Source of the DNA: a bacterium
Lineage (GTDB): Bacteria; Actinomycetota; UBA4738; HRBIN12
Assembly (NCBI GenBank): GCA_046735355.1
Contig: JBKPTC010000031.1
Coordinates: forward strand, 159-64,158
Length of the DNA: 64,000 bases
Reading direction: 5' to 3'
In this document: positions 6,028 to 38,667 of the stretch, one piece after another
Layout: the number at the start of each line of letters is the position of its first letter
How positions within the stretch are numbered: the stretch's first letter is position 1
Position numbers and translations under genes: made by a program
Notes under the pieces: generated by a model
The model's input: only the letters and a program-made list of their open reading frames with translations
Told to the model about the DNA's origin: nothing
Database searches by the model: none

Positions 6028-6057
6028 GGCGGCGCCCCCGTAGAAAGGAGAGGCGCC

Positions 6058-12399: not shown

Positions 12400-12430
12400 C
12401 ACTCCATGGACGCTCGAGCGACACCTCATG

Positions 12431-12460
12431 TGTAGAGCGTCCGGTGGTTTCTTGGTCCTA
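12431..12460 (-). promoter_or_regulatory. Candidate ECF-type promoter (GGACCA-N15-CTCTAC) about 35 bp upstream of the sigma gene start.
   Basis: Minus-strand reading gives aGGACCAagaaaccaccggacgCTCTACacatg. The same CTCTAC hexamer with a GG-rich -35 sits upstream of the second ECF sigma gene at 42311-42340. Confidence 0.3.
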
Positions 12461-13318: not shown

Positions 13319-13447
13319 GGCTCCCCCCTTCCGTCTCGAGCTACCTGCGCGCAGGTTGACGACCGCCCCTCAACCGACACGCAAGGACGGCTCAAGCCCG
13401 GGCTTGAGGCATGGCGTCGAGCGTGAGGCTGGTGCATCCTGTCGACA

Positions 13448-17968: not shown

Positions 17969-18013
17969 GTGCCCCCGGCAGGAATCGAACCTGCGACACG
18001 CGGTTTAGGAAAC
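17969..18013. repeat. 45-nt near-perfect direct copy of the 3' end (T-arm, acceptor, anticodon arm) of the tRNA-Arg gene at 38596-38667. Putative distal att site of a ~20.5-kb island.
   Basis: gtgcccccggcaggaatcgaacctgcgAcacgcggtttaggaaac matches 38595-38638 at 44/45 with a 1-nt insertion. Same orientation as the tRNA. Confidence 0.7.
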
Positions 18014-18199
18014 GGCATTGCGCCGTGCGCCGCTTGCGCCGCATCAGGCACTGCGCAACCCGAGGGGCGCTTCGAACATACGTTCGGTTTCGCTCTGACT
18101 TGCAAAAAATGCTCCACGCGCGGTGACGCGGTGCTTCCACGCGGTCGACCGACGCATCGACCGTCGCGCGGTGGAGAATGCACCGGCGTGGGCGAGACG

Positions 18200-21467: not shown

Positions 21468-22636
21468 TCTCGGACGCGCCCGACGAGCGGCTCCGCGACC
21501 AGATCCGGCGAGCGGCGGCCGTCTTCGAGGACCGGACGGGGCGACGGCCGGACGGCGTGTGGGCGGCGCCCGGCCGCGTCAACCTCGTCGGCGAGCACAC
21601 CGACTACAACGACGGGTTCGTGCTCCCGTTCGCGATCGATCGCCACGCCGTCGTCGCGATCGGGCTTGCGCGCGATCGCCGGCTGCGTCTGTGGTCGGCG
21701 CAGGAAGAGACGACGGTCGACGTCGCGGCGGAGGACGTCAGGCCCGGGATGCCGGGCGGGTGGGGGGCCTATCCGGCGGGCGTGTTCTGGGCGCTCGCCC
21801 GGGCGGGCATCGAGGTTCCGGGCTTCGACCTCGTCGTCGACGGCTCGGTCCCGATCGGGTCGGGCGTGTCCTCGAGCGCCGCGCTCGAATGCGCGGTGGG
21901 CCTCGGCCTCGCCGAGCTCGCGGGATCGGCGCCGGATCGCGTGGAACTGGCGCTCGTGGCGCAGCGCGCCGAGGTCGAGGCGGTCGGGATGCCGTGCGGC
22001 GTCATGGACCAGATGGCGTCGATGCTGTGCCGTGCCGGTCACGGGCTCTTCCTCGACGCGCGCGATCTGTCGTTCGAGCACATCCCGCTCGAGGCTCCAG
22101 GCCTGTCGATGCTCGTCGTCGACACGCGGGTCGCACGACGGTTGACGGATGGCCGCTACGCGGAGCGCCGGGCCGAATGCGAGAGCGCGGCGGAGATCCT
22201 GCGCGTTCCGGCGTTGCGCGACGCCTCGGCCGCCGACGTCGACGGGGCGCGTGAAGCGCTCGGACCGATCCGGTACCGACGCGCTCGCCACGTCGTGAGC
22301 GAGAACGCCCGTGTGCTCGCGGTCGTCGACGCGGCCCGGGCGGGACGGTGGGACGAGATCGGCCCGGTGCTCTCGGCGTCACACGCGTCCCTGCGGGACG
22401 ACTTCGAGGTCTCGAGCCCGGAGCTCGATGCCGTCGTCGACGCGGCACAGGCGGCGGGCGCGCTCGGCGCGCGGATGACCGGCGCTGGATTCGGGGGGTC
22501 CGCGCTCGTCCTGGCGCGGGCCTCGACGGTCGAGGACGTCGTACGCGAGATCGAGACGGGGTTCGGGCGTCGCGGGTTCGAGCGGCCGACCACCGCCGAG
22601 GTGCGGCCGGTGGACGGCGCCCGCCGCGTCCGGTGA
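21464..22636 (+). CDS. galK: Galactokinase (GHMP kinase).
   Basis: The GTG overlaps the GH1 stop. APGRVNLVGEHTDYNDGFVLPFAID is the galactokinase signature. PIGSGVSSSAALECA is the GHMP ATP-binding motif. Confidence 0.85.
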   Translation: MISDAPDERLRDQIRRAAAVFEDRTGRRPDGVWAAPGRVNLVGEHTDYNDGFVLPFAIDRHAVVAIGLARDRRLRLWSAQEETTVDVAAEDVRPGMPGGWGAYPAGVFWALARAGIEVPGFDLVVDGSVPIGSGVSSSAALECAVGLGLAELAGSAPDRVELALVAQRAEVEAVGMPCGVMDQMASMLCRAGHGLFLDARDLSFEHIPLEAPGLSMLVVDTRVARRLTDGRYAERRAECESAAEILRVPALRDASAADVDGAREALGPIRYRRARHVVSENARVLAVVDAARAGRWDEIGPVLSASHASLRDDFEVSSPELDAVVDAAQAAGALGARMTGAGFGGSALVLARASTVEDVVREIETGFGRRGFERPTTAEVRPVDGARRVR

Positions 22637-22734
22637 GCCGGGGGGCGCGTTCCCGGCGGCCACGCGACAACGGTCGGCTCCCGCTCGGAGCAAGGCGGGA
22701 GTATCATCCGAGACCGTCTCGGGAGGGGGTTCCG

Positions 22735-24024
22735 ATGTCGGGTGTTCGAACCGTCGCGGCCGCGATCGCCATCACGATGCTCGTCGCCGTCGGGTGCAGT
22801 GGCGGGGGAACCGAGAACGCGCCGGGAACGATCGTGGTGATGCTGCCGAGCGACAATCCAGGAGACATCCAGCTGCGCCGGGCGCAGGCCGAAGCGTTCA
22901 TGAAGTCGCATCCGAAGATCAAGGTGCAGGTGCAGGTCATCCCGTCGGAGGGGTACAACGAGCGGGTCTTCACCAGCATCGGTGGGGGGAACGCCCCCGA
23001 CATCTTCAACTCCGGCGACGTCGTGATCCCGTCGATCGTGCAGCGACACGTCGCCCTGGACCTCAACCAATTCGTCAAGAGAGACAACTACGACCTGGGG
23101 CAGTTCTACCCGCAGGTGATCCAAGGGCTGACGCTCGACAACCAGCTCGTCGGGCTCACCGACAACTGGGACACACAGGTCATGTACTACAACCGCGATC
23201 TGTTCCAGAAGGCGGGCGTGCCGGAGCCGACGGCGGACTGGACGTGGGACGACGTCGTGTCGGCGGCGCAGAAGATCACGTCGGGGTCCGGGGGCAGCAA
23301 GACATGGGGGCTGCTGTACGAGACGTGGTTCGCACCGCTCGATGATCAGGTCTACTCCTTCGGGGGACAGGTGTTCAGCGACGACGGCAAGCAGTGTCTG
23401 CTCGACGAGCCGCAGAGCGTCGCGGCGCTACAATCGATCGTCGACGTGATGAAGGCCGGGTACGCGCCCCAGCCGCAGGTCTTCGAGCAGGAGGGCCAGG
23501 ACCCGTTCTCGATCTTCGCTGCGGGTCACGCCGGGATGTGGATCGGTTCCGGCCGGTGGTCGGCGTTCGACCTGCAGGGCGTGAAGGACCTGGACTGGGC
23601 GATCGCGCCGCGGCCGAACGGGCCCGATAGCCCGCGGAGCAACTTCTTCCACCTCGCGATGTACGCGATCACCTCGGCCAGCAACGACAAGAACAACGCC
23701 TGGGAGTTCCTGAAGTACATGGTGAGCCCGGAGGGCATCACGCAGGCGTTCGAGAGCATGCAGGGTATCCCGTCGCGGCCGGCTCTCGCCGAGGATCCGA
23801 AGATCACCAACACGGATATCGTTCAGCAGCACGACGCGTTCCAGCCGTTCGTGGAGTCGCTGCCCACCGTGCGGGCGGCCCCGTTCCTCTCGAATTTCTT
23901 CGAGGTCGATGACGCGATCGGAAACGGCCTCGATCCGATGTGGCGGGGCGAGGCCGACGTCCAATCCACGGCCACGAAGGTATGCCAGCGCGTCGACGAG
24001 CTGCTGTCCGAGCAGCAGTCGTAG
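22735..24024 (+). CDS. ABC transporter extracellular solute-binding protein (family 1, carbohydrate); lipoprotein.
   Basis: RBS gggagggggt before ATG 22735. Lipobox MLVAVGCSGGG. Overall family-1 SBP pattern. Confidence 0.8.
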   Translation: MSGVRTVAAAIAITMLVAVGCSGGGTENAPGTIVVMLPSDNPGDIQLRRAQAEAFMKSHPKIKVQVQVIPSEGYNERVFTSIGGGNAPDIFNSGDVVIPSIVQRHVALDLNQFVKRDNYDLGQFYPQVIQGLTLDNQLVGLTDNWDTQVMYYNRDLFQKAGVPEPTADWTWDDVVSAAQKITSGSGGSKTWGLLYETWFAPLDDQVYSFGGQVFSDDGKQCLLDEPQSVAALQSIVDVMKAGYAPQPQVFEQEGQDPFSIFAAGHAGMWIGSGRWSAFDLQGVKDLDWAIAPRPNGPDSPRSNFFHLAMYAITSASNDKNNAWEFLKYMVSPEGITQAFESMQGIPSRPALAEDPKITNTDIVQQHDAFQPFVESLPTVRAAPFLSNFFEVDDAIGNGLDPMWRGEADVQSTATKVCQRVDELLSEQQS

Positions 24025-24051
24025 CACCGTCCAGGCACCGGGGAGTGGTCG

Positions 24052-25038
24052 ATGTCGGACCAGGCACCTGACGCGATCGCGAGGCCGCTCGGCGATCAAA
24101 CCGGCGGGCTCCCGGCCGTCGCGATCCCCGTCCCGCCGCGCCCGAGTCTCCGCGAGCGATGGCTCAGTCGCGACACGCTCGCCGCGTATCTGTTCCTGGC
24201 GCCGGCGCTCGTCCACTTCTTGGTCTTCTTCCTCGGCCTCGTCGTGATCTCGCTCGGCCTGTCGTTCATGAGCTGGGATCTGTTCAGTCCTGCGAAGTTC
24301 GTCGGTCTCGCGAACTACAAGCGCCTGCTGTTCGAGGACCCGGACTTCTGGCCGACGTTCTGGCGGACGACCTACTACGTCGTTCTCGTCATCCCGACGG
24401 CCGTCGCCGCGGAGCTTCTGCTCGCGCTCGCGGTGAACACGCGGCTGCGGGCGATCAAGTTCTTCCGCGCCACCTACTTCATCCCCGTGGTGGCGTCGGC
24501 GGTGGCCGTCGCCCTCGTCTGGGGCTGGATCCTCAACACGCAGAGCGGGATCCTCAACTGGTTCCTGGGCTTCTTCGGGATCGGATCGATCGACTGGTTG
24601 GGCAGTCCGCGGCTCGCGATGCCGTCCGTCGCGCTCGTCCAGGTCTGGCGCGGCCTCGGCGAGGGGATGATCATCTTTCTCGCGGGCCTACAGGCGATCC
24701 CGCAGCACCTGTACGAGGCGGCCGAGCTCGACGGCGCCGGTCGGTGGGCCAAGTTCCGGAGCGTCACCTGGCCGCTGCTCGCGCCGACGACCTTCTTCGT
24801 GACGGTGCTCGAGGTCATCGGGTCGTTCCAGGTGTTCGACATGATCTACCTGCTGACGCGCGGTGGCCCGGCGCAGGCGACCACGGTGTACAACTACGAG
24901 CTTTACCAGCAGGCGTTCCGCGACTTCCGGATGGGGTACGCGGCGGCGATGACGTGGCTCTTGTTCGTCGTCATCGGCGTCCTCACGCTCATCCAGTTCC
25001 GCGTGATCAACCGGCGGGTGCAGTATGAGCTCGGCTAG
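24052..25038 (+). CDS. ABC sugar transporter permease (MalF/UgpA-like).
   Basis: Six TM helices. EAA-loop region IFLAGLQAIPQHLYEAAELDGAGRWAKFRSVTWPLL. Confidence 0.85.
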   Translation: MSDQAPDAIARPLGDQTGGLPAVAIPVPPRPSLRERWLSRDTLAAYLFLAPALVHFLVFFLGLVVISLGLSFMSWDLFSPAKFVGLANYKRLLFEDPDFWPTFWRTTYYVVLVIPTAVAAELLLALAVNTRLRAIKFFRATYFIPVVASAVAVALVWGWILNTQSGILNWFLGFFGIGSIDWLGSPRLAMPSVALVQVWRGLGEGMIIFLAGLQAIPQHLYEAAELDGAGRWAKFRSVTWPLLAPTTFFVTVLEVIGSFQVFDMIYLLTRGGPAQATTVYNYELYQQAFRDFRMGYAAAMTWLLFVVIGVLTLIQFRVINRRVQYELG

Positions 25039-25927
25039 CGCCGTCGAGTCGACGACGCCCCCGCAGGCGCAGCGCGTCGCCCCATCCCCGGACCAGGAGG
25101 AGCGCAGCCCGGCGTCCCGGCGGACGGTCGCCTACCTCGGCCTGGCCGCACTCGCGATCGTGTGCGTCCTCCCGTTCGTCTGGATGCTCGCGACGTCGCT
25201 GAAGACCGTCGACGAGGTGATCCGCGAGCCGCACAAGCTGATCCCGTCGGACCCGCAGGTCTCGAACTACACGACCCTCTGGCGCGACTTCCCGATGTCG
25301 GCGTGGATCTGGAATTCGTTCAAGGTCAGCGCGCTCGTGACGGTCGGCGTGGTCGCGACGTCGGCGCTCGCCGCGTACGCCTTCGCCCGGATCGAGTTCC
25401 CTGGCCGCAACCTCATCTTCCTCGCGTTCCTGGCGACGCTGATGATCCCGGGCATGGTGTACCAGGTCCCGAAGTTCGCGCTGATCCAGAGGATCGGGTG
25501 GCAGAACACGCACACCGCGCTCATCGTGCCGGCGCTGTCGAGCGCGTTCGGTGTCTTCCTGCTTCGCCAGTTCTTCCTCACGTTGCCGCGGGAGCTCGAG
25601 GAGGCGGCGCGGATGGACGGCGCCGGCCACATCCGGATCTTCACGCGCATCATCCTGCCGTTGTCCGGCCCTGCGCTGGCCACCCTCGCGGTCTTCACGT
25701 TCGTCGGGACGTGGAATGACTTTCTGAACCCGTTGCTGTTCATCGACGACTATCAGAAGTACACGCTCCAGATCGGTCTCAGCTTCCTGAACGAGCAGCA
25801 TCGGAGTGTCGTGAACTTCAACCGGCTGATGGCGGGCGACGTGATCGCGCTCGTTCCGATGATCGTCGTCTTCATCGTCGCGCAGCGGTATTACGTCCGC
25901 GGCATCGCGCTCACGGGGATCAAGTGA
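25025..25927 (+). CDS. ABC sugar transporter permease (MalG/UgpE-like).
   Basis: Overlaps the upstream permease. EAA loop LPRELEEAARMDGAGHIRIFTRIILPLSGPAL. Confidence 0.85.
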   Translation: MSSASAVESTTPPQAQRVAPSPDQEERSPASRRTVAYLGLAALAIVCVLPFVWMLATSLKTVDEVIREPHKLIPSDPQVSNYTTLWRDFPMSAWIWNSFKVSALVTVGVVATSALAAYAFARIEFPGRNLIFLAFLATLMIPGMVYQVPKFALIQRIGWQNTHTALIVPALSSAFGVFLLRQFFLTLPRELEEAARMDGAGHIRIFTRIILPLSGPALATLAVFTFVGTWNDFLNPLLFIDDYQKYTLQIGLSFLNEQHRSVVNFNRLMAGDVIALVPMIVVFIVAQRYYVRGIALTGIK

Positions 25928-25961
25928 GGCGCGTCGCGGTCGGGACGCTTGTTCGCTGACG

Positions 25962-27017
25962 ATGGGGTACGCCGTCACGTTCGACGCGCCCGGCGTGGTC
26001 GGCTTCGCCGAGGAGGAGGATCCGGCCCTCGAAGGCGCGCAGGTCAGGCTGCGGACGCTGTTCTCGGGTATCTCGGCCGGGACCGAGCTCACCGGGTACC
26101 GGGGGACGAACCCGTACCTCGACAAGCGGTGGGACCCGGAGCGGCGTCTGTTCGTTCCCGAGACCGGGGCGTCGTTGAGCTACCCCGTGGTCGGCTGGGG
26201 CTACGAGGAGGTCGGCGAGGTCGAGGAGGTGGGCCCCGGGGTGACCTCATTGTCCCCCGGACAGGTGGTGTGGGGGACGTGGGGACACCGTTCGCACGTC
26301 GTCGTCGACGAGGCGTGGGCGGTCGCTCGCGTCCTCGCCGATCCGGCCGACCCGATCGTGGGCGTGTTCTCGCAGATCGGCTCGATCGCGCTCAATGCGG
26401 TCCTCGACGCGAACGTTCACGTCGGCGAGACCGTCGCGGTGTTCGGTCAGGGGGTGCCGGGTCTTCTCGTGATGCAGCTCGTGCGGGCCAACGGGGGGAC
26501 GGTCGTCGCCGTCGACGGCATCGCGTCGCGCCTCCGGCTCTCACGCGAGCTCGGCGCGGACCACGTCGTCGATGTGGGCGCCGATCGCCCCGCCCAGGTG
26601 GTGAAGCGGCTGACCGACGGGCGCGGCGCCGACGTGTCGATCGAGATCAGCGGATCGGCGGCCGCCCTCCACGAGGCGATCCGGTCGACGGCGTACAACT
26701 CCCGCGTCGTCGCCTCAGGCTTCTTTCAGGGGCCGGCCGCATCGCTGTTCCTCGGAGAGGAGTTCCATCACAATCGGGTGCACATCGTGTGCTCGCAGAT
26801 CTCGGGCGTGAGCCCATCGCTCGACCACCGGTGGAACGAACACCGGCTCCAGCGAACGTTCATGAGTCTCGTCGCCGGAGGTCGGATCGAGGTCCGTCCC
26901 CTGATCTCGCACGTCGTCCCGGTCCGTCGCGCGGCCGACGCGTTCCGTCTGCTCGACGAGCGGCCGGAGGACGCGGTCCAGGTCGTGCTCGACTTCACGG
27001 ACGGCGAGGCACCATGA
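25962..27017 (+). CDS. Zn-dependent dehydrogenase/oxidoreductase, MDR superfamily.
   Basis: GxGxxG-like VAVFGQGVPGLLVMQL. MDR catalytic-domain pattern AGTELTGYRG...VVGWGYEEVGEV. Confidence 0.7.
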   Translation: MGYAVTFDAPGVVGFAEEEDPALEGAQVRLRTLFSGISAGTELTGYRGTNPYLDKRWDPERRLFVPETGASLSYPVVGWGYEEVGEVEEVGPGVTSLSPGQVVWGTWGHRSHVVVDEAWAVARVLADPADPIVGVFSQIGSIALNAVLDANVHVGETVAVFGQGVPGLLVMQLVRANGGTVVAVDGIASRLRLSRELGADHVVDVGADRPAQVVKRLTDGRGADVSIEISGSAAALHEAIRSTAYNSRVVASGFFQGPAASLFLGEEFHHNRVHIVCSQISGVSPSLDHRWNEHRLQRTFMSLVAGGRIEVRPLISHVVPVRRAADAFRLLDERPEDAVQVVLDFTDGEAP

Positions 27018-27811
27018 GGCTCGCCTGCCAGGAGCAGCTGATCCCGGGGGATTCGCTCGAGGAGAAGTGGGAACTCGTTGCCACCGCGGGCTTCGACGGC
27101 ATCGAGGTGCTCGGACGCGGGGACGGCGAGTTCGCTCGCCGACGGCTCGAACTGTCTGGCGCGCGCGACCGCGGCGTCGTGATCTCGAGCGTCTGCGTCG
27201 CCATGGACCATTTCATCGGCGATTTCGACGACGCCCTGCGGCGCGATGCCATGGACCAGATGAAGATCCTGCTCTCGGTGATCGCTGAGGCGGGAGGGGT
27301 CGGGGCGGTCACGCCCGCCGCGTTCGGGCTCTGGTCCAACGCGCTCCCACCGTGGCGGCCGCCCGCGCGGACGCCGGAGGAGGACCGGCGGATCCTGGTG
27401 GACGCGCTCGCGGAGCTGGCCGGGCACGCCGAGCGGGAGGGGACGGCCGTGTTCCTCGAGCCGCTCAATCGATACGAGGATCACATGGTGAACACGGTCG
27501 GCGACGCTGCCGACATCGTGCGCCAGATCGGACGGCCGTCGGTCAAGGTCATGGCCGACACGTTCCACATGAGCATCGAGGAGGACGACCTCGCGGCCTC
27601 GATCCGCTCGGTGGGCGAGCTGATCGGACACGTGCAGCTGGGCGACAGCGGTCGCCTGCAGCCGGGCGTTGGTCACCTCGACTGGCCGCCGCTTATGGCG
27701 GCGCTCCGCGATGTCGGCTACGACGGCTGGCTCGCGATGGAGTGCGGGATCCGAGGGGATCCGCGGACCGAGCTGCCGAAGGTCGCGGAGCTGCTCAGGC
27801 CGCTGATGTGA
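27013..27811 (+). CDS. Sugar phosphate isomerase/epimerase (xylose isomerase-like TIM barrel).
   Basis: ATGA overlap with the upstream gene. AGFDGIEVLG...VFLEPLNRYEDHMVNTV...HVQLGDSGRLQPGVGHLDW are conserved barrel metal-site motifs. Confidence 0.8.
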
Positions 27812-27848
27812 GCGTCCCGGCTCGCGCCGCCGATGTGAGGGTTCCCGC

Positions 27849-28817
27849 TCAAGCCCACCACATCTGGCCGACCGGCTCGGCGAACAGGATCGACCGCAGC
27901 AGCTCCACGCCGCGTCGAAGCCCCTCGTCGATCGACATGTAGCCGTCCTCGTGCTCGATCGAGAGCACGTAGTCGTATCCGACCGCGCGAAGCGTGCTGA
28001 TGATGTCGCGCCACACCTTCTCGCCCTGGCCGTATCCGACGGTTCGAAAGACCCACGACCGATCGAGCAACTGCCCGTAGTGCTTGGTGTCGAGCACGCC
28101 GTTGATCGCCGTGTTCCGGCGGTCGATCTGCGTGTCCTTGGCGTGGAGGTGGACGATCGCGTCCTCGGCGGCCAGGGCCTTGATCACCTCGACGGGGTCC
28201 ATCCCCTGCCAGAACAGGTGACTCGGATCGAGGTTCGCGCCGACCGCGGAACCGCACGCGGCGCGCAGCTTCAGAAGCGTCTCGGTGTTGTAGACGACGA
28301 AGCCCGGGTGCATCTCGAAGCCGATCCTCACGCCGTGCGCCTTGGCGAAGGCGGCCTCGGCGCTCCAGTAGGGAACGACCTTCTCGTCCCACTGCCACTC
28401 GAGGATCTCGAGGAAGTCGTCGGGCCAGGGACACGTCACCCAGTTCGGATACCGTGAGCCCTCGCTGTCGCCGGGGCATCCGGAGAACGCGTTCACGACG
28501 GGCACCTCGAGCTGCTCGGCGAGGCGGACGGTCATGCGCCACGTCTCGTGCGCCCGCTCCGCGATCTCGCGCTGGGGATGAAGCGGGTTCCCGTGCTGGC
28601 TGAGCGCGCTGATGATCATCCCCCGGCCGTCGACGGCCTTCCGGAAGGCCTCCGCCGCCTGGCGATCCGATAACAGCGCGTCGGGATCGCAGTGGGCCGA
28701 CCCCGGGTAGTTTCCGGTACCGATCTCGACGGCCTCCACACCGAGTTCTTGCAGCCTGTCGAGCGCCTCCTCGAACGGCGCCTTCTGATACAGAACGCTG
28801 AACACTCCAAGCTTCAT
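27849..28817 (-). CDS. Sugar phosphate isomerase/epimerase (xylose isomerase-like TIM barrel).
   Basis: MKLGVFSVLYQKAPFEEALDRLQELGVEAVEIGTGNYPGSAHCD...RIGFEMHPGFVVYN...YVLSIEHEDGYMS. Confidence 0.85.
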   Translation of the reverse strand: MKLGVFSVLYQKAPFEEALDRLQELGVEAVEIGTGNYPGSAHCDPDALLSDRQAAEAFRKAVDGRGMIISALSQHGNPLHPQREIAERAHETWRMTVRLAEQLEVPVVNAFSGCPGDSEGSRYPNWVTCPWPDDFLEILEWQWDEKVVPYWSAEAAFAKAHGVRIGFEMHPGFVVYNTETLLKLRAACGSAVGANLDPSHLFWQGMDPVEVIKALAAEDAIVHLHAKDTQIDRRNTAINGVLDTKHYGQLLDRSWVFRTVGYGQGEKVWRDIISTLRAVGYDYVLSIEHEDGYMSIDEGLRRGVELLRSILFAEPVGQMWWA

Positions 28818-28913
28818 GCGACGCCCCCTCGGATCGGCCTTCGGCGAGCATAGTGCGTGCCTCCGGCGCAGGCGTTCGCCGCCTTCGGTCCGTCGCTGGA
28901 CCGGGCGCGGCCG

Positions 28914-29723
28914 TCAGGACGTCTTGCGTGCGAGGAACACGACGGTACGCGTCTCGGCGGTGGGCTCCGCACCGGTGTAGTCGGCCGTCAGCCGGACCGA
29001 GAAGCCCTCCCGCTCGATCAGCATCTCGAGCTCGTGTGTGAAGAACACCGTCATGCTGAGCCGATGCTCGTCGCGCTCGACGAGCTCGTCACCGACCCAT
29101 CGGTATCCGCGGATGTCCGCGACGACGCGCTGCTCGAGCGGGTCGACGTCGACTAACCGTCCGCCGAGCGCGTAGTCAGAGCCATCCGATGCTCGACGCC
29201 GCTCGCCCGGTTCGCTCCACGGACCGGGGAGCTCGCGCCGCTCCTCGCTCCTCCAGAAGCGCCACCCGTCGTCGGCGTAGGGGACGTCGTTGTCCAGGAT
29301 CAGCAGGCCGCCGGGCTCCAGGTGCTCGTGAAATCGTCGGAGCGCCGTCTCGGCCTGGCGCCGGTCGCTCCCGAGGCCGAAGCCTCCACAGACGTAGATC
29401 GTCCGATAGGGCCGCCCGATGTCCAGCTCGTGCATCGCTTGCCGGTACAGCCGTGGGGACAGCCCCTCCCGCTCCGCGCGTTCCCGACAGAGCGACAGCA
29501 TGTCTTCCGACACGTCGCAGCCATCCACATCCAGGCCGGACGCGAGGTAGGGGATCAGCAGCCGTCCGGTCCCGCACGCGACGTCGAGCGCGGGCTGGCC
29601 GGCCTCGACGAAGGTCCTCACGTAGTCGATCTCCGGGCCGGAGGTGTTGAACTCGGCCCACCACTTCGCGATGACGCCGTGATGCCAGGTCGGGTGATCC
29701 GGCGGGCCCCCGGTGGACGTCAC
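28914..29723 (-). CDS. Class I SAM-dependent methyltransferase.
   Basis: ALDVACGTGRLLIPYLASGLDVDGCDVSEDML matches motif I. Confidence 0.8.
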   Translation of the reverse strand: MTSTGGPPDHPTWHHGVIAKWWAEFNTSGPEIDYVRTFVEAGQPALDVACGTGRLLIPYLASGLDVDGCDVSEDMLSLCRERAEREGLSPRLYRQAMHELDIGRPYRTIYVCGGFGLGSDRRQAETALRRFHEHLEPGGLLILDNDVPYADDGWRFWRSEERRELPGPWSEPGERRRASDGSDYALGGRLVDVDPLEQRVVADIRGYRWVGDELVERDEHRLSMTVFFTHELEMLIEREGFSVRLTADYTGAEPTAETRTVVFLARKTS

Positions 29724-29732
29724 CGTTCGAGC

Positions 29733-32405
29733 CTAGTCGCGACGGTCGAGGCGTGTGACCGGCGCGAACGCCGCGCCCGCCGCGATCTGGCGCAACCGGT
29801 CCACGAGCGCCTCCGCCAGCGGATCCGCATGAGCGGATCCGAGGAGCGGGAACGTGCACAGGATCCCGGCGCCGCCGCCGTGGGCGAACGCCGCGACGGT
29901 CGCGCGCATCCGATGCAGCCACCCGAGGTAGTGGCCGGCGAGCACGTCGGCGCGCTGCGCCGGCGTGTATCCGTCGATGACGAACCGTGGTGTCAGGCCG
30001 TCGAAGGCGAGGTCGACGGCGGGGCCGACCGCGAGGTTCCGGGTGAGCGCCGGCGAGAGCCATCCCATACCGGCCGCGAGCGCCCAGCCGCTGCCGTAGA
30101 GGGAGCTCGCATCGCCGTTCTCGCACCCGAACGCCTCGAGATGCACGGCACCGTCCGCGGGCAGGGCGTCCTCGTCCATCGCGACGATGACGGCCCGTCC
30201 GCCGCCCCGGAGGTGCGCCTCGACGTCGCCCCACCGGGTGGCGACCGGGATGTCTCCGAGCGGATGCTCGCTCGCCGCGGGGAACAGCCAGATTGGTGCG
30301 TCGTTCGTCGCGACGATCCGATCGCCGTCGACCCACCGGGTGAGGAGGGTCGTCCTCGTCGGATGCTCGACGCCCGGCGCCTCGATCTCGATCCGCTCTC
30401 CGGACGGCGTACTCCCGCCGATGTCGAGCGGTTCCAACCGCCACCGGACCTCGCCCCTCGCGGCGCCGTCGCGCGCCATGGTCATCACACCCACGAGGAT
30501 CCGTTCGCCCGACCGGTACCGGTTGCGTTCGGGGAGCGCGATCACCACGTCCGGCGCGTTCACGCGGCGGAGCCGTTCGAGTCCGGCCTTCGGGCGCCGG
30601 CGCATGTCGAGCAGGCCGTTCGCCTCCCAATGCACGTCGGTGAACTCCGTCACGACGTATCCGGCGATCTGCGGATGGGAGCGCAGGTCCTCGATCTGCA
30701 GGCTCAGCCCGTCCACCTCGTGCCGCTGACTGACATCGACGAACGCCTCGAACGAGCCGAAGACCTCCGCGAGACCCCACTCGTCGAACCGCTCGCGAAC
30801 GCCGGCGGGACGCACGATCCCCGCGCTGGTATCCCCGCCGGTCTCGAACCACCAGGGTTCCCGGCCGTCGGCGTCCTGCAAGCCCTCGGGATCCGGAAGT
30901 CCCCACATCCCGAACTCGGAGAGGATCAGCGGCTCCGATCCGCGCCGGCTCGCGTCGCGGAAAGGGCTGTACGTCGCCGACGGATCGGACACCCAGCCGG
31001 CCGTCCAGTCGCGCCAGGACGCGGTCTGTTCGGGGACCGAGCGGTAGAGGTGGAAGTCGTTGAGATCGGACTCGACATGGAAGCTCGGCGGACAGGCCGA
31101 GTTGTCGACGACGAGCCGCGTCGGATCGAGCGATCGCGCCCAGCGATACGTCTCGCGGAGCCATTCGCGATCGCCCGGGTCGGTCGCGAGGTCCGTTCCC
31201 CAGTCCTCGTTGACGATGCTCCGGATGACCAGCGACGGGTGGTTCGCGTCGCGCCGCACCATCCCCTCGAAGGTCTCGCGGGCGCGCCGCCTCGCGTCCT
31301 CGGTCGAACGGCTCCAGCTCGGCGGCTCCTCCCACACCAGCACGCCGCCCCGATCGGCGGCGTCGAGGTAGCGCGGGTCCGGCGGCTTGATGTGGCAGCG
31401 AAGCAGGTTGAGGCCGAGCTCTCGGGCGCGCCGCATCTGCTCGGCGAGCTCGGTCGTCGTTCCGGGCGTGCAAACGTCCCCCATCCAATAGTCCTGATCC
31501 AACGCGCCCAGCAGGTACACGGGCTCGTCGTTGAGGACGACCCTTCCGTCGCGCACGCCCACCGTCCGGAAGCCGAACGAGTCGGCAGCGCGGTCGACGA
31601 CGCGATCGCCCTCGAGAACCTCGAGGTCGAGCTCGTACAGATGCGGTGCGCCGGGCGACCACGGCTGCGGGTCCGGTACGATCGCCCGCACCGCGAGCTC
31701 CCCGGGCTCGGCGACGCCCGCCGCGCGCTCGTGCCCATCGTCGTCGAGGACAAGCCACCGCAGCCGGCGCTCGGCCGGCGCGCCGCCGAGCTGCACGCGC
31801 GCCGACAGCTCCGCCGACGCGGGGTCCGCCCGGATCTCGATGCGCTCGACGAACGTCTCGCCGCGCCGCTCGAGCCACACGGACTGCCAGATGCCGCCGA
31901 TCGGCCCGTACCAGCTCTGCTTGCCGTGCGGGATCTCGGCGAACGGGAACGGGCCGGCGTCGTCGTCCGGCCCGACGTCGAGTACGCGGACGGTCACCGT
32001 GTTCGCCGCGTTCGGTTGGATCAGCTCGGTGACGTCGAGGACGAACGGGAGATAGCCACCCTCGTGCTCGCCGGCGAGCCGGCCGTTCACCCACACCGAG
32101 GCGAAGTAGTCCACGGCTCCGAAGCCCAGGTGGATCCGGCCGCGGACCGGACCCAGCGGTTCGAGCACGCGCTCGTACCATGCGGTGCCGGCCCAGAGGC
32201 GGAGGTCGTCGAACTGCGCCTGCCACGGCGCCGGGACGCGCACGCGCCTGGGGGCGCCGCACGCTCGGTTGCGTTCCTCGACAGCGACGAAGCGCGCACC
32301 CGGTCCGGTCGGGAGCGCGCCGACGAGGTCGGGCCAGAACGACCAGTCCCCGTCGAGCGATGCACGGAACCGTTCTCGGGCAGAGGGAACGTTCCCGCGA
32401 ATCAC
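29733..32405 (-). CDS. Glycoside hydrolase family 2 (beta-galactosidase/beta-mannosidase-like), about 890 aa.
   Basis: The GTG start overlaps the AKR stop (GTGA at 32402-32405). N-terminal RASLDGDWSFWP...VPAPWQAQF sugar-binding domain. GH2 TIM-barrel region NLLRCHIKPPDPRYLDAADRGGVLVWEEPPSW...IVNEDWG. The ORF upstream of 32405 is R-rich junk. Confidence 0.8.
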   Translation of the reverse strand: MIRGNVPSARERFRASLDGDWSFWPDLVGALPTGPGARFVAVEERNRACGAPRRVRVPAPWQAQFDDLRLWAGTAWYERVLEPLGPVRGRIHLGFGAVDYFASVWVNGRLAGEHEGGYLPFVLDVTELIQPNAANTVTVRVLDVGPDDDAGPFPFAEIPHGKQSWYGPIGGIWQSVWLERRGETFVERIEIRADPASAELSARVQLGGAPAERRLRWLVLDDDGHERAAGVAEPGELAVRAIVPDPQPWSPGAPHLYELDLEVLEGDRVVDRAADSFGFRTVGVRDGRVVLNDEPVYLLGALDQDYWMGDVCTPGTTTELAEQMRRARELGLNLLRCHIKPPDPRYLDAADRGGVLVWEEPPSWSRSTEDARRRARETFEGMVRRDANHPSLVIRSIVNEDWGTDLATDPGDREWLRETYRWARSLDPTRLVVDNSACPPSFHVESDLNDFHLYRSVPEQTASWRDWTAGWVSDPSATYSPFRDASRRGSEPLILSEFGMWGLPDPEGLQDADGREPWWFETGGDTSAGIVRPAGVRERFDEWGLAEVFGSFEAFVDVSQRHEVDGLSLQIEDLRSHPQIAGYVVTEFTDVHWEANGLLDMRRRPKAGLERLRRVNAPDVVIALPERNRYRSGERILVGVMTMARDGAARGEVRWRLEPLDIGGSTPSGERIEIEAPGVEHPTRTTLLTRWVDGDRIVATNDAPIWLFPAASEHPLGDIPVATRWGDVEAHLRGGGRAVIVAMDEDALPADGAVHLEAFGCENGDASSLYGSGWALAAGMGWLSPALTRNLAVGPAVDLAFDGLTPRFVIDGYTPAQRADVLAGHYLGWLHRMRATVAAFAHGGGAGILCTFPLLGSAHADPLAEALVDRLRQIAAGAAFAPVTRLDRRD

Positions 32406-33328
32406 GCCGGGCCCGGCGCGACCTTGTCGATGAGCCGCCGCTCCTCGTCGGAGAGCTGAGTGCCCGCCGCAGCCGCGTTCTGCTCGACCTGTCGGGGATC
32501 CTTCGCACCCGGGATGGTCGTCGACACGGCCGGGTCCGAGAGGACGAACGAGAGCGCGATCTGGGACAGCGGTCGATCGTCGCTCTGGAGCCGTCGCAGC
32601 CGCTCGGTCTGCTCGAGCTGGTCGGCGTACCATGCCTCGCCTAGCCATCCACGCCTGATGTCGCCCTGGGGGAACGTCGTCTCGGGTGTGAACTTGCCGG
32701 TGAGAATCCCCATGCGCAGCGATCCGCGTGCGAGCGTCCCGATCTGGTGCTCGAGGGCGTACGGGAGAAGCTCGGCCTCGGGCGAGCGGTTGAGGATCGA
32801 GTAGTCGAACTGAAGAACCTCGCATGTCCCGTTCCGATCGAAATGCCGGAGGTGATCGATCTCGTTCGTGCTCACGCCGTAGGAGCGGATCTTGCCGTCG
32901 GCCCGCAGCTTGTCGAACGCCTCGACGAACACCTCGGTGTTCTCGTCCCACCAGAGATGACACTGATAGACGTCGATGCGGTCCGTCCGCAACCGACGCA
33001 GCGATCCCTCGCAGCTCTCGATCACCATTGCGGGATCGGTGTATGCGTTCGGCCGCTCGCCACCGCTGTGCCACAGGCCGACCTTCGTCGCGATCACCGC
33101 ATCGTCCCGCCGCCCCTGGAGCGCTCGGCCGACGATCTCCTCGCTCCGGCCGCGCCCGTACACGTCCGCCGTGTCGAACAGGTTGATCCCAAGGTCGACC
33201 GCGCGGCGGATCGCGGCATCGGACGTCCGGTCATCCACCGGGCCCCAGGCATCCCCGCCGATCGCCCAGCACCCCATGCCGACCTCCGACACGCGGATGC
33301 CCGTTCGCCCCAGCCCCCGGTACTGCAT
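32402..33328 (-). CDS. Aldo/keto reductase.
   Basis: RBS aggaagaaagggg before ATG (complement of 33326-33328). MQYRGLGRTGIRVSEVGMGCWAIGG...NLFDTADVYGRGRSEEIVGRAL. Confidence 0.85.
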   Translation of the reverse strand: MQYRGLGRTGIRVSEVGMGCWAIGGDAWGPVDDRTSDAAIRRAVDLGINLFDTADVYGRGRSEEIVGRALQGRRDDAVIATKVGLWHSGGERPNAYTDPAMVIESCEGSLRRLRTDRIDVYQCHLWWDENTEVFVEAFDKLRADGKIRSYGVSTNEIDHLRHFDRNGTCEVLQFDYSILNRSPEAELLPYALEHQIGTLARGSLRMGILTGKFTPETTFPQGDIRRGWLGEAWYADQLEQTERLRRLQSDDRPLSQIALSFVLSDPAVSTTIPGAKDPRQVEQNAAAAGTQLSDEERRLIDKVAPGPA

Positions 33329-33365
33329 CGAATCGACCCCTTTCTTCCTGGTCCCGGCTCGGCTT

Positions 33366-34292
33366 TCAGGTGCTCTCGGGCACGCCCCAGTGCGACAGGC
33401 CGAGGAACGGATAGCGGCTCGCGTCGGCCATTCCGAGCGCGTCGAGGAACTTCGCGAACCCCCACCGCGGCCGATACCCCAACACCCGCTTGGCCTTTTC
33501 GACGGGCCACAGGAAGCGCGCCCAGATGTGCTCTCGCGGGTCGATGCCCCTGCGTTCGAAGACCTCAGTGCATCCGGGCCAGTGGCGCTCGAGGACCGCG
33601 ACCGGATCATCGTGCATGGCGCGCGCGTCGGCCTGCACGAACGGGGTGTCGGCCATGATGTCGAACGCGTCGAAGCCGCCGTCCGGGTCGTGATCGAGGG
33701 CCACGAGCACCGAGTGTGCGACGTCCCGCTCGTCGACGCCGCCGAAGAGCAGGCGAAACCCGTAGTGCTCGAACGAGGCCGGCACGTACATCCCGAACCG
33801 CAAGGCGACGACGCGCATTCGGCCGATCCGACCGTTGTACCGTCCGAGCTCCTCAGCGAGAACCTTCGAGGCGCCGTAGACGTCCGTCGGCAGCGTCGGC
33901 AGGCCCTCGTGCACCCACGCCCACGCGTCGGAGGGTGCCTCGAGACTGCGACCGTAGACGCCCATCGTGCTCGCGAGCACAACGCGGTCGATGCTGGCGC
34001 CGGCGGCCGCCTCGAACACGTTGAACGCACCGTCGACGTTGATCGAGAAGAAATCGCGCGCGGGCCAGTGGGCGAGATGAATGCCGTGCAGGGCCGCCGC
34101 GTGGACTACCGCGTCACAGCCGTCGACCGCCTTCGCGACCGCGTCGGCGTCGCGGACGTCGCCGACGATGGACTCGACCGATTCGTCGATCGGGCGGAAG
34201 TCGAACGCGACGGGCTCGTGACCGGCCTCCCGCAGCGCAGGGATCGTCGCCCGTCCGAGGTTCCCGCCGGCGCCGGTGATCAGGACGCGCAC
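33366..34292 (-). CDS. NAD-dependent epimerase/dehydratase family protein.
   Basis: MRVLITGAGGNLGRATIPALREAGHEPVAFD Rossmann motif. Catalytic-region Y..ASK (VYGASKVLAEE). Confidence 0.85.
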   Translation of the reverse strand: MRVLITGAGGNLGRATIPALREAGHEPVAFDFRPIDESVESIVGDVRDADAVAKAVDGCDAVVHAAALHGIHLAHWPARDFFSINVDGAFNVFEAAAGASIDRVVLASTMGVYGRSLEAPSDAWAWVHEGLPTLPTDVYGASKVLAEELGRYNGRIGRMRVVALRFGMYVPASFEHYGFRLLFGGVDERDVAHSVLVALDHDPDGGFDAFDIMADTPFVQADARAMHDDPVAVLERHWPGCTEVFERRGIDPREHIWARFLWPVEKAKRVLGYRPRWGFAKFLDALGMADASRYPFLGLSHWGVPEST

Positions 34293-34296
34293 GTCG

Positions 34297-35313
34297 TCAT
34301 CCCCCTGTTCCGACCGCCGGCGCCTCGTCGGACTCGACCGAGGGTCCCGACCCGCCGTTGACGACCGGCCACCCGTTCACCCACTCGATCGGATCGATGA
34401 AGAGGTAGCGGTAATTCGTGAAGTCTCCTCGAATCATCGCGTGGTACACGATCCAGTCGCGGCCGTCGCCGTCCCGGATCGTCGAGTTATGGCCCGGGGC
34501 GTTCACGCTCGCGTTCGCGGCGAGGATCGGGTTGTTGGGGTCGCGCTCGAATGGTCCCGTCGGGGACGAGGAGCGGGCCACCATCACCGCGTAGTGCGCC
34601 TCGGTCCCACAGCACGCGTCTCCCGAGTACATCAGGTAGAAGAAGCCGCCGTGCCGCAGCACCCAGGCACCCTCGACGAGACCCTCGTACGGCCGGTCCG
34701 ACGGCTCGAGGACGTCCGTCCGCTCGCCCTCGAGCGCGAGGCCGTCGTCCGAGAGCCGCTGGACGTGGATCGGCACACCGTCGGAGCCCCAGTAGATGTA
34801 CTTCGTCCCGTCGGCCTGCATGACGAACGGATCGATCGCGTCGAATCCCTTCTCGCCGACGATGAGTGGCTTTCCGATCGCGTCCTCGAACGGACCGGAG
34901 GGGCTCGCGGAGGTCGCGACCCCGATCGCCATCCGCGCCGTCTCGAGGTAGCGCGCGGAGAAGTAGAGGTAGTAGGTCGCCCCGAACCGGACGATGTGCG
35001 GCGCCCAGATGTCGCCGTTGTCCGTGCCCGGCGGCGTCCAGTCAGGGCGCTCGCTGAACGCGTCGCCGACGAGCCTCCAATGGACGAGGTCGGTCGAGTG
35101 CAGCACCGGGACGTTGTAGAAGACCGCGTCGTGATACGACTGCGTCGTGTACGCGTAGTAGGACCCGTCGTCGGCCCGGATGATCGACGGGTCGGGAGCA
35201 TCGTTGTGCAGGACGGGGTTCCGGTACGCGGGGTCTCGTGATTGCACGAACCAGACGGCCACGGCGCCGACCAAGGCGACGACGGCGACCGCGACGAGGA
35301 GCCGGCGCGTCAC
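34297..35313 (-). CDS. Glycoside hydrolase family 43, membrane-anchored or secreted.
   Basis: N-terminal TM/signal MTRRLLVAVAVVALVGAVAVWF. NPVLHNDAPDPSIIRADDGSYYAYTTQS...STDLVHWRLVGDAF...WAPHIVRFGATYYLYFSA are the GH43 blade motifs. Confidence 0.85.
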   Translation of the reverse strand: MTRRLLVAVAVVALVGAVAVWFVQSRDPAYRNPVLHNDAPDPSIIRADDGSYYAYTTQSYHDAVFYNVPVLHSTDLVHWRLVGDAFSERPDWTPPGTDNGDIWAPHIVRFGATYYLYFSARYLETARMAIGVATSASPSGPFEDAIGKPLIVGEKGFDAIDPFVMQADGTKYIYWGSDGVPIHVQRLSDDGLALEGERTDVLEPSDRPYEGLVEGAWVLRHGGFFYLMYSGDACCGTEAHYAVMVARSSSPTGPFERDPNNPILAANASVNAPGHNSTIRDGDGRDWIVYHAMIRGDFTNYRYLFIDPIEWVNGWPVVNGGSGPSVESDEAPAVGTGG

Positions 35314-35368
35314 GTCGGTCCGCCGCCTCGCGTGGCGTTTCGCATGCGGGCGAGTCTAGCGATGGCCT

Positions 35369-35427
35369 GCCGGCCGTTCCGGCCGGCTCGCTCCGGCTCT
35401 GCCGGCCGTTCCGGCCGGCTCGCTCCG
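35369..35427. repeat. Two direct repeats (32-bp period), each holding the GC-rich palindrome gccggccg-ttc-cggccggc, in the divergent promoter between GH43 (-) and the ABC ATPase (+). Candidate operator sites.
   Basis: gccggccgttccggccggctcgctccg at 35369-35395 and again at 35401-35427. Stem gccggccg / cggccggc. Confidence 0.55.
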
Positions 35428-35480
35428 CTCGGGCGGCCATCGTAGAGTCCGGTTACCCAACGTTGGTGGCCGGAGGTGCG

Positions 35481-36743
<1,263 letters not shown>

Positions 36744-37196
36744 GCAGCGCGTTCGGCGTCGGACGCGACGTCCGGCTCTGGCGATCTGACGGTCACGGCG
36801 ATCCGACGACCCCGGTCGCGACCCGTACTCCTGTCCGTCGCGTCTGGCGCGACCCGGGGAACCTTGACCCGCACGCCGAGCGGGCGGATAGTTCGAGGGT
36901 CGCCGTTTCGCGGGGGCGCAATTGGTTGCGTCGAAGCCTCGACCCCTTCCGAACCTTCCGCGAAACGTGTGGGTGCTCGGCCGTGCGTCCTGGGAGTTAG
37001 CCCCGTGTTTCGGTTCCCTACGCCTGCCGGGAGGCGCTCAGCAATCTCGGCGGTTTAACGATGGGCGCGGAGGACAAGCCGTTGGCGCTCCGATCGTTCA
37101 CGGATCGATCGGTCTAACGGACGCGCACTCGAGCGTGAGGAAATCTTCGGACCAACGTCTGGTTGGAAGCTGAGACATGACCCTGGCCGGAAGGTC

Positions 37197-38378
37197 CTAG
37201 GGCGTATAGCCCACGGCGGTGGCCCAGGCGAGGTCCACGTGGAGGGTGCCCGAGGCATCGGACGTATCCACCGTCACCGTGGACGGCACGCGGTTGCCGG
37301 TCGGCGACAGGATCGTGGCCGACCCGGTCCAGCCGATGAAGTTCTTGGTGGAGTAAAGCACTCTCGCGAGCGGCACCTGCTGGAAGTTGTGGGCCTTGAT
37401 CGCGCTCTGCACAAGGAGGTTGACCGAGTCGAAGGTGTAGGGACTCCACAGGCCGGGTGCCGAGTGGAATTTGGCCTCGAAGGCGGACAGGAAGGGGGCC
37501 GAGCCCGCGAAGTCGGACGGGGCGGGCACGCCGAGCACGGGGCAGTTTTGGACGGCAGGGATCCCGGCGTCGGTCACGTAGCCAACCGAGGCCGAGGCGT
37601 AGTCAGACAGGCAGTTCGTGCCCGCGCCGACCTCAAGCATCTGGTCGGCCACCAGCGCGCCCTCGGGGTAGTACAGGTCGGCGTAGACCCCGGTCGGATG
37701 GGTTGCCAGGGCCTGGGCCACGGCTGCCTGGATCACGGCGGGATCGTTGGTGGCGCTGGGGATGATCGGGATGTTGGCGGATACGGTGACTCCAGCGGCC
37801 TGGAGCCCGGCCACGAGCGAGGCGTCTGCCCCCTGGGTATAAGCGGTGGAGTTGTCATAGACGACGGCCACCGAGGTGTTCTTCTGCCAGGTAGTCAAGG
37901 CCTGCACGGCGATCGGCGAGATCTGGTCGTTCATGGGCTGGAGCGTGACACCGTAGCCTTCGGTCGAGGTCGACGAGGTGAGGCGGATCGGGACCAGCTT
38001 GTCCTTGATGAACAGCGGCAATGTCTGCAGGCCTACCCCCGAGTTGTACGGACCCACCACCCCGTCGAGTCCGGCCCGGATGGCAGCCTTGGCTGCAGCC
38101 ACGCCGACGGTAGGATCGGCCGCATCGTCGATCGGGACGATCTGGACCTGACGTCCGAGCACCCCACCGGCCGCGTTGATCTGGTCGGCGGCTAGTTGAG
38201 CACCCTCGAGCATGCCGATGCCGACATCGGACTGGCTTCCGGTGAGCGGTCCCTCGAGGCCGATCTTCCAGACCTTGGGCTGGGATGCTCGGACCGTGCC
38301 CTGGGCTGCCGCATCAAAAGAGGTGATGAACAAGGCCACGCCCAGGGTGAAGGCGAGCTTCTTGGCGAGATGACGCAT
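37197..38378 (-). CDS. ABC transporter substrate-binding protein, Leu/Ile/Val-binding (LivJ-like) family.
   Basis: Signal peptide MRHLAKKLAFTLGVALFITSFDAAAQG, then a periplasmic-binding-protein type I pattern (IGLEGPLTGSQSDVGIGMLEGAQLAADQINAAGGVLGRQV). Confidence 0.8.
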   Translation of the reverse strand: MRHLAKKLAFTLGVALFITSFDAAAQGTVRASQPKVWKIGLEGPLTGSQSDVGIGMLEGAQLAADQINAAGGVLGRQVQIVPIDDAADPTVGVAAAKAAIRAGLDGVVGPYNSGVGLQTLPLFIKDKLVPIRLTSSTSTEGYGVTLQPMNDQISPIAVQALTTWQKNTSVAVVYDNSTAYTQGADASLVAGLQAAGVTVSANIPIIPSATNDPAVIQAAVAQALATHPTGVYADLYYPEGALVADQMLEVGAGTNCLSDYASASVGYVTDAGIPAVQNCPVLGVPAPSDFAGSAPFLSAFEAKFHSAPGLWSPYTFDSVNLLVQSAIKAHNFQQVPLARVLYSTKNFIGWTGSATILSPTGNRVPSTVTVDTSDASGTLHVDLAWATAVGYTP

Positions 38379-38444
38379 TGAAGCTCCATTTTAGGTCGAG
38401 GTGGGGCCGGAGTGTCCAGGATGACCCCGAACACGACAGTGGAT

Positions 38445-38488
38445 GGTCGCCGGGCAGGAATCGATCCTGCGACACGCGGTCAGGAACC
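38445..38488. repeat. Degenerate second copy of the tRNA-Arg 3' end (about 80% identity), 107 bp from the intact tRNA. Likely an older att remnant or a tRNA pseudogene fragment.
   Basis: ggtcgccgggcaggaatcgatcctgcgAcacgcggtcaggaacc shares the same 1-nt insertion as the copy at 17969-18013. It lacks a D-arm and 5' acceptor, so it is not a functional tRNA. Confidence 0.5.
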
Positions 38489-38595
38489 TGATGGCCACCG
38501 CTGTCCGCTTACCTTGTACGCCAGCGGTTATGTGCTGGGTCCGTCGAGTCTGGACGAGACCGGTCCGATCAGCGACGCAAAGCCGCTGGTGGAGG

Positions 38596-38667
38596 TGCCC
38601 CCGGCAGGAATCGAACCTGCGCACGCGGTTTAGGAAACCGCTGCTCTATCCACTGAGCTACGAGGGC
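38596..38667 (-). tRNA. tRNA-Arg (anticodon CCT).
   Basis: Reverse complement GCCCTCG-TA-GCTC-AGTGGATA-GAGC-A-GCGGT-TTCCTAA-ACCGC-GTGC-GCAGG-TTCGATT-CCTGC-CGGGGGC-A folds into a canonical cloverleaf. The 7-bp acceptor has one G-U pair. T-loop TTCGATT. Anticodon loop T-T-CCT-A-A. Confidence 0.85.

Follow-up and report, generated by a model that had tools for sequence, protein, structure and literature searches.

A degenerate 3' half of tRNA-Arg(CCT) as a probable internal junction relic in an integrase-less island array of an uncultured actinomycetotal genome

A 45-base fragment (B), co-oriented with the intact tRNA-Arg(CCT) gene and located downstream of it, is a non-functional remnant of a tRNA-Arg(CCT) 3' half, of the kind left at integration junctions, that is, an ordinary genomic scar. 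It comes from a 64-kb stretch of DNA of an uncultured actinomycetotal genome, all of which was analysed and is called the window below; tRNA-Arg(CCT) is the sole tRNA of the window according to both ARAGORN and Rfam. We consider it probable, at roughly 60%, that B is the relic of an internal junction in an accreted or composite island array that is now immobile. Reading downstream from the tRNA, the locus consists of the tRNA gene, a spacer of 105 nt (module N), fragment B with its trailer, about 20 kb of sugar-utilisation cargo, a second fragment (A), about 8 kb of further DNA, and a third, short fragment (C). The coordinates are collected in Table 1. The locus is a small case of something well known: integrating elements accumulate at tRNA genes, and partial copies of the tRNA keep a record of these events.

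Table 1. Features of the tRNA-Arg(CCT) locus, listed downstream from the tRNA gene (positions are those of the window).
Feature	Position	Strand	Basis or content
Intact tRNA-Arg(CCT) gene	38594..38667	-	ARAGORN; Rfam RF00005, 69.4 bits
Module N, 105-nt spacer between the tRNA 3' end and B	38489..38593	-	Read from the sequence
Conserved motif CGCTTACnnnGTACGCCAGCGG (in the tRNA sense, CCGCTGGCGTACnnnGTAAGCG)	38506..38527	-	66 nt from the tRNA 3' end
Fragment B, degenerate tRNA-Arg(CCT) 3' half, anticodon loop to ACCA end	38444..38488	-	Probe match, BLASTN, repeat family D7
Trailer of B	38382..38439	-	Homologous to the sequence directly 3' of intact tRNA-Arg(CCT) genes in other genomes
A–B interval	18017..38381		Pfam: cargo for carbohydrate uptake and catabolism
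Fragment A, near-perfect tRNA-Arg(CCT) 3' half, anticodon stem/loop to discriminator	17969..18016	-	Probe, BLASTN
C–A interval	9827..17968		Pfam: beta-lactamase-family protein, ECF sigma factor, 1292-aa BTAD/AAA/TPR regulator
Fragment C, acceptor 3' strand and T arm of the same tRNA	9806..9826	-	BLASTN, family D7, 0/100 shuffles

BLASTN aligns B with the intact gene at 78.6% identity over 56 nt (38439–38493). An earlier note on this DNA had proposed a second, degenerate tRNA-Arg 3' fragment of about 80% identity near the intact tRNA, and that fragment is real (no match in 100 shuffles); it does lie close to the tRNA, with a gap of 105 nt instead of the 107 bp given there. A 27-nt probe taken from the copy at 17969 is found exactly at 17977–18003 and with a single mismatch at 38453–38479, while none of the 100 shuffled sequences matched it, and within repeat family D7 the central 31 nt of B and A are 94% identical. 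Compared to the consensus half, B has nine differences including indels, and these cluster in its arms: eight fall in the outer 19 positions and one in the central 27 (p = 0.002, for a core/arm partition chosen after seeing the data). The B-specific core is GGCAGGAATCGATCCTGCGACACGCGGTCAGGAACC.

Fragment A is much better preserved. It matches the intact gene at 95.8% over 48 nt with one gap (BLASTN), has a variable loop of 5 nt and not a single substitution relative to the consensus, and forms the distal boundary of a 20.6-kb interval. Fragment C, with the sequence GTGCCCC-GGCAGGAAaCGAAC, is shorter than both A and B and was overlooked in the earlier note, which counted two partial copies and one intact gene, all co-oriented; the co-orientation holds for A, B, C and the intact gene together, with a chance expectation of 0. 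C extends the accessory region to about 29 kb, and its extent suggests either an older event or an event at the T-arm sublocation. A and B both start at the anticodon stem/loop, the sublocation of about half of the mapped tDNA islands (PMC4383910). The similarity among the copies ends at the edges of the tRNA-derived segment, as is expected of att repeats, and no homology is seen between their flanks. Segmental duplication as the source of the copies was rejected, since it would not be expected to stop at these edges.

Comparison with other loci agrees well with an attachment-site origin of such fragments. In three viral contigs (L003, L004, L005) the same core, ending in the anticodon loop, lies 80–110 nt from a tyrosine integrase gene, in two loci from metagenome-assembled genomes, or MAGs (L042, L054), a fragment is located about 140 nt from an integrase of another family, and in L043 an intact tRNA is followed by an integrase. 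As fragments of the same extent are found 80–150 nt from tyrosine integrase genes both in viral contigs and in other Actinomycetota genomes, tRNA-Arg(CCT) is a real integration hotspot, and the idea that the window holds att remnants at such a hotspot, put forward in the earlier note, is supported by these loci and by the co-oriented array of 3'-half relics. The search for the variant sequence next to an integrase, also proposed there, was successful in part: A-type cores lie beside integrases in the viral contigs, and they are the only ones there, while the 27-mer with the B-specific T is absent from these contigs. In one MAG (JBOGVI01) three tRNA-Arg(CCT) 3'-half fragments (L042, L054, L063) were recovered and the intact gene was not; two of the three adjoin the same integrase family, which suggests multiple or strain-variable islands at tRNA-Arg(CCT).

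B itself is not recognisable as a tRNA gene or pseudogene, as neither an RF00005 cloverleaf nor a recognisable 5' half is present. No match to tRNA or to any other Rfam family is observed even at E ≤ 10, and the DNA upstream of B does not significantly resemble the 5' half of the tRNA (empirical p = 0.26), so that B is a 3'-half-only piece starting at the anticodon loop. We consider it extremely unlikely that a functional structured RNA includes B (as a non-canonical tRNA-like gene at 38445–38527), or that B is a tandemly duplicated tRNA pseudogene. An 83-nt cloverleaf can be drawn for 38445–38527, and CCGCTGG of the conserved motif in the spacer is able to pair with CCGGCG of B; still, ARAGORN calls this cloverleaf only with thresholds lowered to 50–70%, a setting that yields calls just as spurious at other places in these segments, the fold z-score reaches only –1.5, the motif is present in three other genomes having no B-like partner, and no viral contig carries the B-specific 27-mer. 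The candidate of a full-length tandem tRNA pseudogene or tRNA-like gene was rejected on the p-value, the z-score and the sub-threshold status of the ARAGORN calls. The same tests address the suggestion of the earlier note that a structured RNA or a tRNA with a non-canonical fold be looked for at this place, and its interpretation of B as a tRNA fragment survives them.

Both A and B contain an extra A in the variable loop (ctgcgAcacgcgg) that is missing from the intact gene. The alignment of the three copies reproduces this observation of the earlier note, in which common derivation of the two fragments from the same incoming att sequence had been suggested. The suggestion is not supported. One genome per species was scanned for the tRNA 3' half with either loop length allowed, yielding 62 loci, and among the tRNA-Arg(CCT) genes and fragments of these loci a variable loop of 5 nt is what is commonly found, in several phyla, while the 4-nt loop was seen in 11 tRNAs, most of them from MAGs of Gaiellales or Thermoleophilia type and from unclassified Actinomycetota MAGs. 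As the 5-nt loop is common and the 4-nt loop is the odd state, the base shared by A and B is, by this comparison, a retained ancestral character, uninformative with respect to common origin. A shared indel in att copies can mislead if its ancestral state is not checked against other genomes.

The same set of loci is instructive about the intact gene, which has a 4-nt variable loop (GTGC) and the 5' acceptor strand GCCCTCG. The acceptor stem of all 11 tRNAs with the 4-nt loop is GCCCCCG or GGCCCCG, never GCCCTCG; the GCCCTCG acceptor goes together with the 5-nt loop in 21 genomes, and the combination observed in the window occurs in none of the 59 comparison tRNAs. Moreover, the sequence of A recurs unchanged as the 3' half of tRNAs having exactly the 5' half of the window's tRNA (for example, L019, L021, L047, L055, and L064). 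Judging from the sequences, A is best read as the displaced half of the resident gene and not as incoming att sequence. The working gene could be chimeric, or it could have arisen by a lineage-specific 1-nt deletion or reflect an assembly indel. Since A is the 3' half of tRNAs sharing the window's exact 5' half, and the 4-nt loop is found elsewhere only with a different acceptor stem, the working gene fits construction from a resident 5' part and an incoming 3' part; its 3' half with the 4-nt loop would be either that incoming part or the product of a later 1-nt deletion.

Fragment B appears to have a different history. Its anticodon loop, CCTGA, is of the G37 type and is shared with the displaced fragment of L060, and it has an encoded ACCA end, as in L062, which is absent from the intact tRNA and from A. 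The trailer of B is 74% identical over 58 nt (E = 3e-5) to positions 1637–1693 of L060, a stretch that abuts the tRNA 3' end there, and L062 aligns to it too. Together, the G37-type loop, the encoded CCA end and the trailer homologous to tRNA-adjacent sequence in L060 and L062 point to a third source for B, other than that of A. B with its trailer is thus the second unit in which a tRNA 3' half is joined to an adjacent arm. L060 is an occupied site, where the tRNA is followed by a frameshifted IS481-family transposase and then by a degenerate displaced fragment (4841–4880), 3.2 kb away. Directly after the tRNA of L060, at 1632–1760, a unit of roughly 24 nt (GATCAGCCGGAGC type) is tandemly repeated about four times; these repeats may be integrase arm sites.

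Two successive units of a 3' half plus trailer downstream of the tRNA are the product expected from accretion, and the earlier note had proposed its simplest form, serial accretion in situ with the proximal island almost wholly deleted. In such a scenario, the tRNA would have used the att copy of the first island, that is B, as its working 3' half, up to the integration of a second island that displaced B and of which a later deletion left only 105 bp. Tandem arrays at tDNAs have precedents (Islander lists 125 arrays of two or more islands; PMC4383910), and the scenario is possible, although we regard it as rather unlikely. Having been displaced after A, B should show at most the decay of A, but there are zero substitutions in A and nine differences in B. 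Moreover, as read from its sequence, B as it stands can not pair with the 5' acceptor strand and has an A at T-loop position 54. Finally, the 105 nt between the tRNA and B have a defined, conserved content and are not an arbitrary residue.

Outside its motif, module N shows no similarity to what flanks A or B, and it matches tRNA-adjacent sequence in L069, L071 and L027. The motif holds an imperfect palindrome, GCGTAC-nnn-GTAaGC, and occurs once in the window, with 0 occurrences expected by chance. It is located next to an intact tRNA-Arg(CCT) gene in the same orientation, at a distance of 66–68 nt, in L027 (3286–3308), a GTDB MAG in which the intact tRNA is followed by AIPR and RAMA defence genes, and in L071 (233–254), a metagenome contig; at the same offset and orientation it lies beside a partial 3' half in L069 (3981–4002). 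The BLAST E-value of the motif is 0.03, with the positional constraint not yet counted, and two of six metagenome-wide matches are linked to tRNA-Arg; a match this strong at the same offset is very unlikely to arise by chance. In the four unrelated contigs the stretch between the tRNA end and the motif is not conserved, and homology stops about 20 nt past the motif. Phage and plasmid collections and the viral contigs contain no relevant matches to the motif or to N. Protein-coding origin of the motif ("TPLAYxVS") was considered and rejected, as the downstream frames are not conserved between genomes and the apparent open reading frame in L069 arises by fusion to the final 30 codons of a lipoprotein gene. 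By these comparisons, N is a conserved tRNA-linked module and not a random residue, and it would be either an element arm or the native trailer of the tRNA. The motif could be an integrase arm-type site, a trailer/terminator element or a second hotspot.

In L069 (3868–4115), the partial tRNA-Arg 3' half together with N borders on the final 30 codons of the gene for a 296-aa lipoprotein. In relatives (L074–L079), the same gene is intact and in a syntenic context (lipoprotein, cupredoxin, DEAD-box helicase, HlyIII), with no tRNA there. Insertion at a secondary site, deletion or a chimeric assembly could account for the junction in L069. A rearrangement junction about 20 nt past the motif is found in two genomes, that of the window and L069. 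One might imagine, then, that the tRNA 3' half plus N is a portable unit with a sharp distal edge, either a minimal att cassette restoring the tRNA or an undescribed recombination hotspot downstream of tRNA-Arg(CCT) in Actinomycetota; we hold this to be doubtful. If it were true, B would mark the point at which such a unit was spliced in, and not the edge of a deleted island.

The presence of the motif at the 66–68-nt offset by tRNA-Arg(CCT) in L027 and L071, with no integrase nearby, also lends itself to a reading in which N is the native trailer, the tRNA and N together represent an unoccupied site, and B and everything beyond it came through a second recombination-prone junction past the motif or through a rearrangement. 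The conserved chromosomal genes beside the motif in L069 and the end of homology about 20 nt past it in all four genomes are consistent with that, and the possibility that N is native likewise weighs against the internal junction, although in L069 N abuts a truncated gene. We nevertheless find this reading quite unlikely. A is a pristine, co-oriented displaced half, and by the logic of tDNA islands all DNA between A and the tRNA, N included, would have been inserted; moreover, the end of N is not repeated elsewhere in the window. No known mechanism accounts for the arrival of an att-type tRNA half at a junction of this kind.

We therefore return to the internal junction as the preferred interpretation of B. 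Recombination by a tyrosine integrase at the anticodon loop would have inserted DNA between the resident tRNA gene and its displaced half A, with B inside the inserted DNA. B would be a dead attachment-site junction, a tRNA 3' half still joined to its former trailer. At a junction of the type element arm, core, element arm within a tandem or composite island, there would be no selection and only the core would need to resemble the tRNA, which would explain the conserved core of B and its diverged ends. The most parsimonious order of events would be as follows. An island already composite through accretion, with N and the old junction B on it, may have integrated once, so that A would be fresh and B old or heterologous; alternatively, a second element with a heterologous attP could have integrated into the distal fragment left by a first one, and B would never have been functional here. 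The integrase gene or genes would then have been lost, leaving an immobile scar. Support for this interpretation comes from the co-oriented copies with their att-like edges, the sublocation at which A and B start, the similar fragments beside integrases, the resident type of A, set against a loop of the intact gene that occurs elsewhere only with a different acceptor, and the concentration of differences in the arms of B, whose trailer is of tRNA-adjacent type.

Several observations weigh against the internal junction. No integrase or other mobility gene is found in the whole 64 kb by Pfam annotation of the coding ORFs, by a tblastn search with five integrases associated with tRNA-Arg, or by a custom profile made from five integrases and run against all six-frame ORFs, the best match to the profile in the window having E = 0.45. 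The GC content, GC3 and codon bias of the A–B interval are not distinct from those of its flanks, the GC content of the window being roughly 70%. No close relative, and so no empty site, was found in the searched collections: the best homologue of a flanking (anchor) protein, with the source contig excluded, is 66% identical, exact-protein look-ups of both flanking genes returned nothing, and the contigs of two relatives, with 56% identical homologues, have no tRNA and no synteny. The core/arm partition of B, as said, is post hoc.

The 25 kb scanned with Pfam on the 5' side of the tRNA contain genes of chromosomal type, encoding a globin, a glucan phosphorylase, a LigD PrimPol, an RlmN-like protein, and transporters, and no relic of a tRNA 5' half was found on that side. 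This bears on a further possibility, tRNA-replacement integration, as in tRNA-dependent lysogeny, where an element would bring its own tRNA-Arg(CCT), the host gene would not be rebuilt, and B would be the 3' part of the dead host gene. The mechanism is known in Actinobacteria (PMC10865867), and an intact tRNA 105 nt upstream of a broken 3' half that has only a limited core in common with the working gene resembles its outcome. We think it very unlikely in view of the chromosomal character of the 5' side, the lack of a 5'-half relic there and of any integrase in the window, and the trailer of B, which resembles element-side or tRNA-adjacent sequence of L060, itself an occupied site.

Some features of the 5' side were noted in passing. 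A strong terminator-like hairpin (38751–38780, minus strand; 13 pairs followed by a T-rich tail) is located between the gene of a 304-aa secreted hypothetical protein and the tRNA gene, which suggests that the tRNA is transcribed on its own. The gene at 45937–47145 has bacterial eRF1-like release-factor domains (baeRF family 2, acVLRF1) and adjoins an MFS transporter. The neighbouring genes at 60271–61656 and 61649–62986 are paralogous and have a 77-nt segment in common, with 73% identity (repeat family D15).

The cargo between A and B comprises genes for a Zn-dependent alcohol dehydrogenase (Zn-ADH), a GFO/IDH/MocA protein, GH1, galactokinase, a sugar ABC transporter, and a xylose-isomerase-like TIM barrel, as well as a methyltransferase, GH2, an epimerase, GH43, a MalK-type ATPase, and a periplasmic binding protein of the Leu/Ile/Val type. 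Just upstream of the coding region of the MalK-type ABC ATPase, at 35369–35442, lies a GC-rich repeat (GCCGGCCGTTCCGGCCGGCTCGCTCCG...) with two overlapping copies 32 nt apart. Positions 1–13000 of the window have a GC content of about 65% compared to about 70%, and many ORFs without a Pfam match, with MgtC, an M10-type peptidase, and an acyltransferase also present; this segment may be further accessory DNA past fragment C.

The array delimits an accessory region of roughly 20–29 kb with sugar-utilisation and regulatory genes in the genome of an uncultured actinomycetotal bacterium, and island finders based on composition and those based on integrases would both miss it. The motif, with its constant spacing from tRNA-Arg(CCT), offers a modest lead; it may represent an integrase arm site or a conserved trailer feature. 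As for the serial accretion with loss of the proximal island proposed in the earlier note, the two units of a 3' half plus trailer keep it possible, while the conserved 105-nt module and the stronger decay of B compared to A speak against it.

Sublocation classes of tDNA were reportedly described by Williams in 2002. The crossover sublocations recognised in tDNA include the anticodon loop and the T-stem region, and about half of the tDNA islands mapped in Islander are at the anticodon sublocation, with 125 tandem arrays (PMC4383910). The locus is like these islands in that an intact tRNA is followed by co-oriented 3' fragments on the same replicon, extending from the anticodon loop (A, B) or the T-arm region (C) to the tRNA 3' end, with accessory cargo between the repeats and several fragments at one tRNA. 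Unlike Islander islands, it has no tyrosine integrase (PF00589) in any interval, so that the Islander filter would reject it. Each member of a tandem array in Islander has its own fragment and integrase; here, the fragments are present and the integrases absent, the proximal "island" is only 105 nt long, and the proximal fragment has decayed further than the distal one.

The literature on ICESt1 and ICESt3 of Streptococcus is said to describe integrase-less, att-flanked elements of the CIME type, which undergo accretion-mobilisation with ICEs. Similarly, in the window the intact tRNA with B on one side and A on the other flank 20.6 kb of cargo, bounded by att-type repeats and having no recombination module or mobility genes, and an internal att junction is kept in a composite unit. 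The differences are that no partner ICE or phage has been identified here and that the host belongs to an uncultured actinomycetotal lineage. A further comparison for accretion is provided by phage-ICE tandems (PMC13651849).

Among actinobacteriophages, heterologous attP copies with several mismatches are tolerated, that of Boilgate matching at 38 of 43 positions (PMC10865867). The locus resembles integration of actinobacteriophages and AICEs in that att cores of tyrosine integrases overlap the tRNA 3' half in Actinobacteria, and tRNA-dependent lysogeny in that a short core with non-tRNA arms leaves a non-functional part of a tRNA (PMC10865867). It differs in the absence of phage and AICE genes and in the tRNA, which has chromosomal genes on its 5' side and does not look element-borne; compared to tRNA-dependent lysogeny, the conserved core of B is 27–31 nt long, not 8–17 nt, and neither a 5'-half relic nor an integrase is present (PMC10865867). 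Overall, in its workings the locus resembles a tandem or composite tDNA island, or else a relic of the CIME type. As a feature it is of a familiar kind and of low general interest, and only two points are mildly unusual, the motif at a fixed offset from the tRNA and the reversed order of decay of the two fragments A and B.
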